Assembly: GCF_024298765.1 (NCBI RefSeq)
Contig: NZ_CP101212.1
Length of the DNA stretch: 64,000 bases
Source: Escherichia coli
GTDB lineage: Bacteria; Pseudomonadota; Gammaproteobacteria; Enterobacterales; Enterobacteriaceae
Direction: 5' to 3' (one strand)
Position 1 is the stretch's first letter, and each line of letters begins with the position of its first letter. Below are positions 1 to 3,236 of this stretch, piece by piece. Under the pieces are notes generated by a model that was given only the letters and a program-made list of their open reading frames with translations, was not told where the DNA came from and made no database searches. The position numbers were made by a program, and so were the translations under genes.

Positions 1-570
1 AACTCAGCAAACATTCGTAAATGGATTGCTCGGTTTTATCACTTTTGGCATCTATACTCCGCTGGAAGCCCGGGTATATTGCTCACAATAGTTGCCCATC
101 GATATGGGGAGCTCATCTGCACTGTTCATTAATATACTTCTGGGCTCCCTACAGTTGTTTTTGCATAGTGATAAGCCTCTCTCTGAGGGAGGAAATAATC
201 CTGTTCAGCGATGTCTGCCAGTCGGGGGGGCTGCATTATCCACGCCCGAGGCGGTGGTGGCTTCACGCGGGGATGGGCAGATTGATCTGATATGCAACCG
301 ACGACGACCAGCGGCAACATCATCACGCAGAGCTTCATTTTCAGATTTGGGCCACCTTTTGATTTCTCGTTTAACTTTTGCAGTCACCAGACTGTGATTT
401 ATTTTAACAAATCAATAGCTTTCATAAAATTCTCGAAGCTGAAAGCTTAACTGAACCAACCAGCCTGGCTGGTGTTTTCTAAAGACAAAAAGGCCATCAG
501 CAAAACACTGATAGTCTGAATCACCTTTATCAATCATGTATGAAGAAAATATGCGCAATTAGTTGACAGT

Positions 571-586
571 GATTATCATTTTCATT
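571..586. promoter_or_regulatory. Fur-box-like operator next to a TTGACA -35 hexamer
   Basis: gattatcattttcatt resembles the Fur consensus GATAATGATAATCATTATC (reverse-complement half); TTGACA at 564-569 immediately upstream; hairpin plus U-tract at 626-692 downstream. Confidence 0.3.
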
Positions 587-950
587 AAAAAGAGCGCGTA
601 GCATTCTTATTTCATGAGGAAATTTACCCGCCAACAACCTGAGTAGCGAAAGCTGTTCATCCCCAATATTTTTGCTGGCGGGTTCTTTTTTCTACTGTCC
701 TCCTCCCCAGAGGAAGCATTCCCATTAATCATTACTGGCGAGGAGGCAAGAGAAAAAGTCGGTTCTTTGTCCCTAAATAACAGCATCATTTCAGTCCATG
801 CAAAATCTGATTTACCAGCTCACATAATAACCTGATGATACACAGTGTAAGTTCACAGAGATATTGCAATTGCCTCCGGATAAGTAAGGGGAGATTGCAC
901 TATGCAAATGCAGCACCTGAGGTTGGCTATCCTAAGCAGCCGATTATGCG

Positions 951-2001
951 TTGAGGCTTTCAGTGATGGCTGATATAGCAACAATGAGAATGAAGGCTCT
1001 GCACTTCTGGGATAAACACGGTATTTCTGCAGCTTCTGAAGCCTTTGGCGTATCCTGCCGCACGCTTTACTGGTGGCGTCAGTTACTGAACAAGGGAGGA
1101 CCTGAGGGGCTAATCCCGCACAGTAAGGCACCTCTGGTGCGACGAAAAAAGCACTGGCATCCCGATGTGCTGAAAGAGATTCGACGCCTCAGGACAGAGC
1201 TGCCGAACCTCGGTAAAGAGCAGATTTTTGTTCGCCTGAAGCCCTGGTGCGCATAACGCCATCAGACCTGCCCGAGTGTTTCCACCATCGGCAGAATGAT
1301 CGCCACCGCACACGATAAAATGCGGATGATACCAGTACGTCTGAGCTCGCGGGGTAAGGCTCTGCTTGTCAAAAAGCGAACCACCAAACCCCCGCAGGCC
1401 AAAGCACTACCGTCCGGTAAAGACAGGAGAGCTCATTGGGATGGACGCCATTGAGCTCAGAATGGGTGAAATGCGTCGCTATATCATTACCATGATCGAC
1501 GAACACAGCGATTACGTACTGGCGCTGGCTGTGCCGTCGCTCAACAGTGATATCGTCAATCACTTTTTCAGCCGTGCAGCCCGGCTGTTCCCTGTCGGTA
1601 TCAGCCAGATCATCACAGATAACGGGAAAGAGTTCCTGGGAAGCTTTGACAAAACGCTGCAGGAAGCCGCCATCAAACACCTCTGGACCTATCCCTACAC
1701 GCCAAAAATGAACGCTATCTGTGAACGTTTTAACCGGGCATTAAGAGAGCAATTCATTGAATTTAATGAAATTTTACTCTTTGAGGATCTGGCGTTGTTT
1801 AACCTGAAACTGGCGGAATATCTGGCGCTGTATAACAGCAAAAGACTCCACAAGGCGCTCGCACTAACGACGCCCGTGGAATATATTTTAAAAGAGAACA
1901 AAAATTGCAATATGTGGTGGACCCATACACAGCAAACGCACAGGCCGCCCCGGTTGGGTAGATATGTGGGATGGCTGGTTCAGACTTCAGGATATGGTTG
2001 A
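951..2001 (+). pseudogene. IS481/IS3-like DDE transposase remnant (HTH N-terminus plus rve integrase core), disrupted
   Basis: ORF 951-1256 encodes an HTH-type N-terminus; ORF 1366-2001 encodes an integrase core with a DDE-like TDNGKEF...ERFNRAL signature; TAA at 1254-1256 and a frame change near 1420-1440 separate them. Confidence 0.6.
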
Positions 2002-2774
2002 GGCTGGTGATGAAGTCTCTTTATCAGGAGATCTGATCAAGAGACAGCCGCGCAGGGGGATTCACTATGCTGGATTCTTTTAACAAATTCTCCGCTAACC
2101 AAAAAATAGACTTTTTGCATTCGTAAATGCGTTAAGAGATAATTTTTAAAGTTCCATCAATCTCCCGGCCAGTTCGTCTCGCGGCATTACTCACTATCCG
2201 CACAACTTCAGTAAGATCATGACTTTTTCAATCGTTATCTGTTGACCAAGCTTTGAAACCACTAGCGTCCCGTCAACCTGACCTGGAATCGTCGAGAACC
2301 GCCCATAGTTGTGAATTGGCTAGAGTGTGATGGAAAGCAACGCTAAACGACCTAGTCACACATTCTCTTTTCCCTAACAATGACCATTTAGTGAAATAAC
2401 GTATCCAAAATGATGACGTGAAAGCCTGACACTGGCAGCGAAAAGCCGAAAAAACTCACCTGGTCAGGAGCAAAAATCGGATTATTCGCCAACAGCGTAA
2501 TATCAGCAGTAGTTCTCGACACGCTTGCGCTATAGACAGAGGATGAAACGCTGCTGGTCGGAGTTCTCTATACATTTTTGGCGACGGCAGAACCGCTCAC
2601 CAATGCCTTAACGTCTATCAGCCTTCCGGTGAGTTGGAACAGCATGCTCAGCGTTTGCAAGATATTCTCCACGGTCTGTAGCAGCGTAGGTTTCAATTTA
2701 AATATCCCCAGATAGCCCTCTGGGAGCTTCCCTTTTTATTAAGTTTTAATTACCGTTGCAATAGTTAAATGATA

Positions 2775-2795
2775 TTGGTAATTATTATCATTAGC
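2775..2795. promoter_or_regulatory. Fur-box-like sequence about 440 bp upstream of iroB
   Basis: taattattatcattagc matches the AATGATAATCATTA core at 12 of 14 positions; no closer Fur-like site seen before the iroB start. Confidence 0.35.
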
Positions 2796-3236
2796 ATTTG
2801 TGTCTGTGTTGTTTCTGGTAAGGCTGAAAGGGAACAAACATCGCCTGTACAACGGCGTTTTTACTTACAGACCAGCGAAGGCGAGACTATCAGGATGATG
2901 CATCGTGTGTCTAAGAAATCACGGTTCTTTCCAGATTCGTTGTTCGGTCTAACACTGCACAAATGCGTCAGAACATCCCGGCGTAGCTGTCCGACGCCAT
3001 TTGGGCTGTTCAACAGGACAATGGCGCGTAAGCGTTAATGGAAGTGGGGATACGGAGTTCCCTGTTCACCTGTGTATGTCACGGAAAAGTCTCTGACTGA
3101 GCTGTCCATAACGCTGGTGAAGCACAAATGGCGCAGCATCTGGTAAAGCAGGTTTAACGAAAAGTCGTGTCCTGCTGCTGGCATATGAGTGCGTCGACTG
3201 CCTGATTTAGATCGTCAAGCGGAGAGGGATTTTCTC

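Follow-up and report, generated by a model that had tools for sequence, protein, structure and literature searches.

The stretch of DNA analyzed here, referred to as the window, comprises 64,000 nucleotides (nt) of an Escherichia coli replicon (contig NZ_CP101212.1 of RefSeq assembly GCF_024298765.1). Positions 563 to 693 of the window probably constitute a self-contained gene for a Fur-repressed small RNA (sRNA) of about 95 nt, which is encoded on the plus strand and, judging from the sequence and its relatives, was originally a "moron" of a lambdoid prophage. The replicon is a ColV/pS88-type virulence plasmid, as indicated by the opening of the window, which holds the 3′ end of iss/bor (positions 1-91, plus strand) and a remnant of Rz/Rz1 (92-348), each 88% identical to phage lambda; iroB starts near 3189. 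An earlier note on this DNA had proposed an iron-responsive transcript at this site and had offered three options, an sRNA, a leader, or the remnant promoter of a lost gene. The sRNA option is favored, since the promoter-terminator unit is conserved as a block, its hairpin is better conserved than the flanks, and no plus-strand gene follows it in intact prophages.

Promoter, Fur box and predicted transcript

The promoter of the element is marked by a consensus −35 hexamer, which was unchanged across all alleles still carrying the promoter, and by a Fur box, which on the minus strand reads GAAAATGATAATCACTGTC and agrees with GATAATGATAATCATTATC at 16 of 19 positions. The Fur-like site of the earlier note was thus present next to TTGACA, with its position (571-586) slightly offset from the best match (565-583). 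In dinucleotide-shuffled sequence, only 0.01 Fur 19-mers with three or fewer mismatches were expected per 64 kb. Two overlapping 7-1-7 Fur motifs were detected at the same place, against 0.13 expected by chance. The box covers core parts of the promoter, namely the −35 hexamer and the spacer, which is the placement of an operator. As internal positive controls, the documented boxes upstream of iroB (2771-2795) and upstream of the ORF123/c1220-type gene (14697-14715) were both recovered. Their sequences are Fur motifs of strain CFT073 (Banerjee et al. 2020, PMC7157518, Table S5B), indicating that the scan behaves properly on the window. The ORF123/c1220-type gene, whose box match spans 14696-14715, is of the DAHP synthase type. 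Further matches to the Fur box were found at 12846-12860, where the sequence resembles the CFT073 iroN motif, and at 30623-30637.

The −10-like hexamer TAAAAA was kept in most alleles. One allele, from a metagenome contig (OJWO01000210.1, L056), has an intact RNA body and terminator but carries unrelated sequence immediately before the 5′ arm, in place of the promoter and Fur box; this is either a natural promoter swap or an insertion junction.

The predicted RNA folds with a minimum free energy of −25.6 kcal/mol (z = −2.8 against shuffled sequences). The 8-bp stem and the following U-tract described in the earlier note were found at, or within a few bases of, the positions given there: ACCCGCCA (626-633) pairs with TGGCGGGT (676-683), and the pairing can be extended to 11 pairs. 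The energy of the terminator hairpin was about −21 kcal/mol in the centroid structure. The tract 3′ of the branched hairpin reads TTCTTTTTT, and the U-tract, with eight Us and one C, was the same in almost all alleles. In the 5′ arm, the core AUUCUUAUUUCAUGA was largely conserved, and the linker ahead of the stem was the most variable part. A promoter of its own, albeit with a weak −10 hexamer, and a Rho-independent terminator therefore bound a noncoding unit within the range of 50 to 300 nt. The positions of these features are given in the table.

Features of the element and its surroundings in the window; segment identities are from comparisons between the plasmid, Nissle and EC14 lineages
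Feature	Position	Strand	Description
−35 hexamer TTGACA	563-568	+	Sequence read; perfect sigma-70 consensus
Fur box, 19-mer	565-583		Overlaps −35 hexamer and spacer; 16/19 against GATAATGATAATCATTATC
Overlapping 7-1-7 Fur motifs	564-578 and 570-584		12/14 each; motif scan
−10-like hexamer TAAAAA	586-591	+	17-nt spacer; 4/6; putative function, from sequence
Predicted primary transcript	598-693	+	About 95 nt; start predicted from −10 hexamer, end from U-tract
5′ A/U-rich region GUAGCAUUCUUAUUUCAUGAGGAAAUUU	598-625	+	Single-stranded in predicted centroid structure
Terminator hairpin, branched	626-683	+	Outer stem 626-637/672-683
Inner 8-bp hairpin, GAAA loop	640-647/652-659	+	Predicted fold
C-rich internal loop UCCCCAAUAUUU	660-671	+	Predicted fold; conserved
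U-tract TTCTTTTTTC	684-693	+	After hairpin; intrinsic terminator tail
Upstream segment	481-562		Identity 80-82%
Promoter segment	563-596		Identity 79-88%
5′ arm segment	597-626		Identity 80-83%
Hairpin and U-tract segment	627-693		Identity 96-97%
Downstream segment	694-842		Identity 77-87%
Prophage-derived block carrying the element	481-842		BLAST against L001 and L002 (EC14)
Minus-strand intrinsic terminator	494-514	−	Ahead of holin gene in intact prophages
STnc490 match	356-477	−	Rfam, 90.8 bits, E = 7e-18

The evidence on the strand is modest, yet all of it points to an RNA from the plus strand. The U-tract lies 3′ of the hairpin on this strand only, and the inner stem has two G-U pairs that would be C-A mismatches in a minus-strand RNA. 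Likewise, the substitutions that keep the pairing, from G-C to G-U in the Klebsiella plasmid allele and from A-U to G-U in another allele (L021), do so only on the plus strand. The earlier note had found no open reading frame (ORF) of 60 codons or more associated with the unit, and no conserved ORF spans the element. The minus-strand ORFs vary among alleles and have no Pfam or PHROG match; the "hypothetical protein" annotated on the minus strand over the element in EC14 has 63 amino acids, is cut to 35 amino acids in the window and matches no family.

According to the proposed mechanism, Fe-Fur would occupy the operator over the −35 hexamer and spacer when iron is available and would block RNA polymerase. 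In the absence of iron, as in serum, urine or host tissue, Fur would leave and transcription would start near 598, to stop at the intrinsic terminator formed by the hairpin and U-tract at about 690-693. The product would begin with an A/U-rich 5′ arm and end in a 3′ U-tail, with a C-rich internal loop (UCCCCAAUAUUU) between them, a layout typical of base-pairing sRNAs that depend on Hfq. The 5′ region may serve as a seed or as an Hfq contact, and the U-tract would, as is typical, form the Hfq-binding 3′ end. Hfq dependence and action in trans on mRNAs are suggested by this layout; for action in trans, the chance is estimated to be somewhat below even. In intact prophages the RNA might additionally act as an antisense RNA to the leader of the lysis operon. 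Coupling to lysis would not be its sole role, because the unit is retained where the lysis genes have been lost.

Fur occupancy, prophage origin and conservation

The iron-related part of the earlier note is strongly supported, as two independent published Fur chromatin immunoprecipitation (ChIP) datasets for E. coli CFT073 peak on the homologous −35/Fur box. In the CFT073 genome (NC_004431.1), the homologue is about 87% identical over the block; its TTGACA starts at 3440893, its terminator pattern lies at 3440957-3441015, and its Fur box also agrees at 16 of 19 positions. The plasmid and CFT073 boxes differ at 3 of 19 positions, and the binding data are for the CFT073 homologue. The Fur ChIP-exo peak P114 (3440891-3440903) was present under iron-replete conditions only, and it was classed as intergenic and assigned to the adjacent transposase genes of an insertion sequence (IS), IS3 (Gao et al. 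2023, PMC10164565, Dataset 2). The Fur ChIP-seq peak at 3440893 had a maximum amplitude of 3620 and was assigned, within a pathogenicity island, to the "c3597 transposase" (Banerjee et al. 2020, PMC7157518, Table S5). In the same CFT073 tables, the amplitudes at other sites were 4670 at ryhB, 3245 at chuA, 2860 at entC, 2115 at iroN, 1125 at iroB, 649 at iha, 526 at sitA and 341 at iucA. These results indicate that Fur binds the homologous CFT073 site in vivo in an iron-dependent manner, with the peak coinciding to the base with the −35/Fur box, and that this site is among the strongest Fur sites in that genome, without an assigned regulated gene. The gene c3597 and its neighbors are absent from the differential-expression tables of the ChIP-seq study (PMC7157518), and in neither study is the assigned transposase among the differentially expressed genes. 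As these tables are confined to annotated genes, they could not show an sRNA that lacks annotation.

Another very strong Fur ChIP-seq peak of CFT073, at 4333067, has an amplitude of 1730 and only the "c4561 hypothetical protein" assigned, and it is listed beside the c3597 peak at the close of Table S5 (PMC7157518); it may likewise be an orphan Fur site. A further Fur peak of CFT073, close to rrrQ/rzpQ, lies inside a ydfR pseudogene of a Qin-like prophage, in which the annotated region upstream of the holin gene holds ynfU and cspB.

The element is carried by a 360-bp block (481-842) that was found in three settings, namely intact prophages, the degraded pheV island of CFT073 and Nissle 1917, and ColV plasmids, and the whole unit was kept in each of them. 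The EC14 prophage appears to be a complete lambdoid prophage with terminase, Q antiterminator, DNA methyltransferase, class II holin, lysozyme, Rz and iss genes. There, the class II holin gene comes immediately after the block, and the late genes and the candidate promoter are on opposite strands. Both in EC14 and in about 20 prophage contigs of IMG/VR, the unit is located between the Q/methyltransferase side and the holin gene and runs against the late genes, which is the arrangement of a moron; in intact prophages it lies 40 to 240 nt upstream of the holin start. Downstream of the terminator in EC14, there is no plus-strand gene for about 900 bp, and the interval holds a PapR-like RNA, followed on the other strand by STnc100 and the methyltransferase gene. 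STnc100 (115 bits) and the PapR-like 3′ end are 150 to 450 bp from the element.

The PapR-like unit of EC14 was observed at L002 6370-6465 (plus strand), where a promoter-like TTGCAA-18-TATTAT precedes a short unit. Its 3′ half and terminator resemble PapR, its 5′ half is unlike PapR of UTI89, and it converges on the full STnc100 gene (L002 6466-6653, minus strand). Together with the element, the interval from Q to holin thus holds at least three small-RNA-like units.

The minus-strand terminator ahead of the holin gene has a perfect stem of 9 to 10 bp in EC14 (L002 6010-6036) and a mismatched stem in both the window and CFT073. Possible roles are to shield the lysis genes from read-through or to form the 3′ end of an RNA made from the minus strand. 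In L002, this terminator is overlapped by an SgrS-like Rfam match below threshold.

On the plasmid, the surrounding segment is, from its sequence, a heavily eroded prophage late region, in the order iss/bor, Rz′, IS200 fragment, element, IS remnant and STnc100 fragment. The STnc490 match marks a fragment of IS200, as STnc490 is the antisense RNA of the IS200 left end. This left-end fragment takes the place of the holin-lysozyme-Rz segment and joins the element to the Rz′/iss remnant. The same Rz′-IS200′ junction is present in CFT073 (STnc490 match of 65.5 bits), indicating that the remnants on the plasmid and in the pheV island descend from a common ancestor in which the deletion had already occurred. 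The pheV-island remnant of the block in Nissle 1917 and CFT073 has an IS3 element on one side and an ISL3 element on the other, and its distance is about 2 kb to papI and 8 kb to iha; the plasmid copy is about 2.5 kb from iroB. The homology ends at 842 and is followed by an unrelated IS insertion (843 to about 2040) with a frameshifted transposase that has an integrase core domain (ORFs 951-1256 and 1366-2001). Beyond it, positions 1921-2106 gave a weak STnc100 match (17.6 bits, E = 0.85), in which a 60-nt local alignment (2047-2106) resembles the 5′ part of the EC14 STnc100 gene. This stretch is probably a decayed sRNA gene of the STnc100/PasD type that was parted from the element by the IS-like insertion.

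By BLAST, the block was found in 876 chromosomal E. coli records at 80-90% identity and in 636 plasmid records at at least 99% identity. It was present in 1431 of 5426 complete genomes, about a quarter of the complete E. coli genomes, and 554 of 573 plasmid copies were at least 99% identical to the window. It also occurred, besides the IMG/VR prophage contigs, in 52 true metagenome contigs. Among 50,697 phage records there was no BLAST match to 481-842, which rules out a remnant of an Stx1 promoter, or any sequenced phage, as the source. Outside E. coli, no true homologue turned up when 100,044 species-representative genomes were scanned twice, the only matches being chance ones in metagenome-assembled genomes of Firmicutes. 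A copy with 90.6% identity was observed on the IncFIA/FII plasmid pKPN49_2 of Klebsiella pneumoniae (CP128689.1; L031 5001-5170), between a histidine decarboxylase gene and an IS3 element and with hxsA nearby. This different neighborhood indicates further mobility of the block.

In total, 15 distinct true sequences of the unit were recovered, representing about eight allele types. The Fur box differed at few positions among them and was recognizable in each, and the spacing from promoter to terminator was fixed at about 130 bp in all alleles. The segment of the hairpin and U-tract was the most conserved part of the block (table), and the hairpin loops were as well conserved as the stems. Loops that are constrained like stems argue that the RNA or DNA of this segment has a function that depends on its sequence. 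The retention of the unit contrasts with the losses beside it, as in the plasmid and the island the lysis genes are gone and the minus-strand terminator has decayed.

Weight of the evidence and alternative explanations

Some results speak against a Fur-repressed sRNA gene. The −10 hexamer lacks the conserved final T, and a simple promoter scan gave no promoter call for the window allele; the same scan called the EC14 allele (TTGACA-18-AAAAAT, 10/12). The z-score of the fold was alike on both strands, and the outer stem has an A-C mismatch, in the plasmid allele only. Among eight distinct alleles from viral, metagenome and genome sources, none of the 26 predicted pairs showed a compensatory change. 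Since the stems are nearly invariant, this covariation test has no power and neither supports nor contradicts the fold, and the predicted structure is based on conservation and thermodynamics. With regard to targets, duplex energies against 216 translation-initiation regions of the plasmid were not beyond those of shuffled controls. Exact complementarity gave no convincing target either, the longest complements, a 14-mer and a 13-mer, being antisense to traH and deep inside traC. The literature search gave no paper naming an RNA at this locus and no expression or Hfq data for it, and no paper in searchable full text quotes its sequence.

Expression data for pS88 are ambiguous and cannot be tied to the element, which also counts on this side. 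In the quantitative reverse transcription-PCR study of pS88, unnamed ORFs between iroB and iss were measured. Induction of ORFs 130 and 131 was 3- to 15-fold in serum, in urine and in vivo, but only about 2-fold, and not significant, with the chelator; ORF 132 was repressed 5-fold by the chelator. The transposase ORFs at 951-2001 are probably ORFs 131 and 130 of pS88. Read-through from the Fur-controlled promoter is one candidate explanation for the induction of these two ORFs in serum and urine.

The unit may instead be a Fur-controlled device acting in cis, by antisense transcription or interference against the leader of the late (lysis) operon, with no targets in trans and with only a relic left in the plasmid and the CFT073 island. 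The arrangement in the prophages fits this explanation, as the unit lies upstream of the holin gene on the opposite strand, the late transcript entering that gene is fully complementary to it, and a dedicated minus-strand terminator lies between the two. However, loss of the lysis genes left the unit almost unchanged in two degraded contexts that are independent of each other, and in more than 550 plasmids at at least 99% identity, while the adjacent minus-strand terminator gathered mismatches over the same period. The conserved loops also suggest sequence-specific contacts beyond plain antisense pairing. A sole function in cis is therefore unlikely, and it would be compatible with the sRNA gene in that both need the same Fur-repressed transcript. 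A strong Fur site without a productive transcript, acting as a decoy, a nucleoid-structuring site or a roadblock while the hairpin only insulates the phage late region, is quite unlikely. Banerjee et al. (PMC7157518) reported 349 Fur peaks but only 57 regulated operons, and the weak −10 hexamer and the lack of a change in any adjacent annotated gene in the fur mutant point in the same direction. The expression tables are limited to annotated genes, however, and such a site would not account for the invariant consensus −35 hexamer exactly under the Fur box, the fixed distance to the terminator, or the conservation of the 5′ arm and loops. Moreover, the terminator points away from the holin gene, and this promoter is the only one upstream of it to be terminated.

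The two other options of the earlier note, a leader (attenuator) or the remnant promoter of a protein gene lost from the plasmid, are very improbable. IS fragments and pseudogenes are present on both sides of the unit, and the transposase-like ORFs at 951-2001, probably the serum- and urine-induced ORFs 130/131 of pS88, lie on the same strand. In the intact prophage, however, there is no plus-strand gene after the terminator that the unit could lead or could have lost, so the remnant promoter is rejected, and on the plasmid the homology stops at 842 with the unrelated IS insertion next to it. The region does not align to the 3′ end of a disrupted gene, a result that would have refuted the earlier note. 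The least probable explanation is a tiny mRNA for a 10-codon ORF, ATG-AGG-AAA-TTT-ACC-CGC-CAA-CAA-CCT-GAG-TAG (615-647, plus strand). Its ATG, length and stop codon were kept in the four main alleles (MRKFTRQQPE, MRNYTRQQSE, MKNHTRQQPE and MRSYTRQQPK), yet no Shine-Dalgarno sequence lies upstream (CAUUCUUAUUUC-AUG) and most of the ORF is part of the terminator stem. Almost all of the substitutions are nonsynonymous, and they cluster where the RNA linker varies, indicating that conservation of the RNA explains that of the ORF.

For the sRNA gene, a broader reading is put forward tentatively, with a chance that falls a little short of even. It would be a mobile Fur-repressed riboregulator, unrelated to RyhB, which was spread by lambdoid prophages, was captured by the ColV virulence region and by the pheV island of sequence type 73 (ST73), and reprograms chromosomal or plasmid genes under iron starvation in the host. 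Candidate targets would then be iron uptake, colicin or phage receptors, and prophage lysis. In avian, neonatal-meningitis and urinary strains of E. coli, plasmids of the ColV type are major determinants of virulence, and their best-known cargo (iro, iuc, sit and cva) is iron regulated. A Fur-controlled sRNA within their conserved virulence region would supplement the iron response of these plasmids with a post-transcriptional arm, and the element is also carried by CFT073, Nissle 1917 and about a quarter of the complete E. coli genomes. Such an sRNA would explain the orphan, top-ranked Fur peak of CFT073, which was credited to a transposase that is not Fur regulated. It would also provide an example of a phage "moron" sRNA that outlived the decay of its prophage and was recruited to plasmids.

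Relation to known small RNAs

Both Fur-repressed sRNAs and prophage moron sRNAs are kinds already known, and this member appears to be undescribed in searchable material. The element is unannotated in RefSeq and PLSDB records and absent from Rfam. In Rfam searches at E values up to 10 of window positions 1-3200 and of the EC14 and CFT073 loci, no match covered the element, and only its neighbors and a spurious snoRNA match were found. The families of RyhB, Esr41, AgvB, AsxR and STnc100 are therefore excluded for 560-700, and the unlikeness to RyhB claimed in the earlier note holds.

RyhB (RF00057) is the core-genome Fur-repressed, Hfq-dependent sRNA of enterobacteria. The element resembles it in the Fur operator over the promoter and in its predicted length of about 90 to 95 nt and predicted Rho-independent terminator with a U-tail, and the Fur peaks in CFT073 are of the same order (3620 at the element homologue and 4670 at ryhB). 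It differs from RyhB in having no sequence or covariance-model similarity to it and in being accessory and mobile, with copies in prophages, a pathogenicity island and plasmids.

Esr41 (RF02676) is an island-encoded sRNA of enterohemorrhagic E. coli that represses cirA, chuA and bfr and lies near iha in SpLE1. Like Esr41, the candidate sRNA is horizontally acquired and tied to iron uptake loci, near iha in CFT073 or iroB on the plasmid. The two are not homologous, with no Rfam match to Esr41 in the window, L002 or L022. Fur control is not mentioned for Esr41 in the accessible parts of its paper, whereas Fur binding is the best-supported property of the element.

STnc100/PasD and PapR share with the element the niche between Q and holin in lambdoid prophages, the organization as stand-alone promoter-terminator units and the occurrence in extraintestinal pathogenic E. 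coli, and their sequences differ from it. PapR was rejected as its identity, as the window lacks the published primer sequences and its complementarity to papI reaches 8 nt at best, against 22 nt for PapR. The PapR-like 3′ end in EC14 is about 200 bp beyond the element and is not part of the block that EC14 and the window have in common. PapR is described as activated by LRP, and Fur control is mentioned for neither PapR nor the Pas sRNAs in the portions of these reports that were accessible. Matches to the Pas sRNAs were limited to a total of 12 plasmids, and sequenced Stx phages carry them. The Pas sRNAs were rejected on distribution and synteny, as the element has copies on about 570 plasmids and none among the deposited phage genomes.

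RyhB-2 is a paralogue of RyhB with a shared 33-nt core, and the element, in contrast, has nothing in common with RyhB. RyhB-2/IsrE of Salmonella and PrrF of Pseudomonas nevertheless provide a precedent for more than one Fur-repressed sRNA in a cell and for analogous sRNAs of unrelated sequence.

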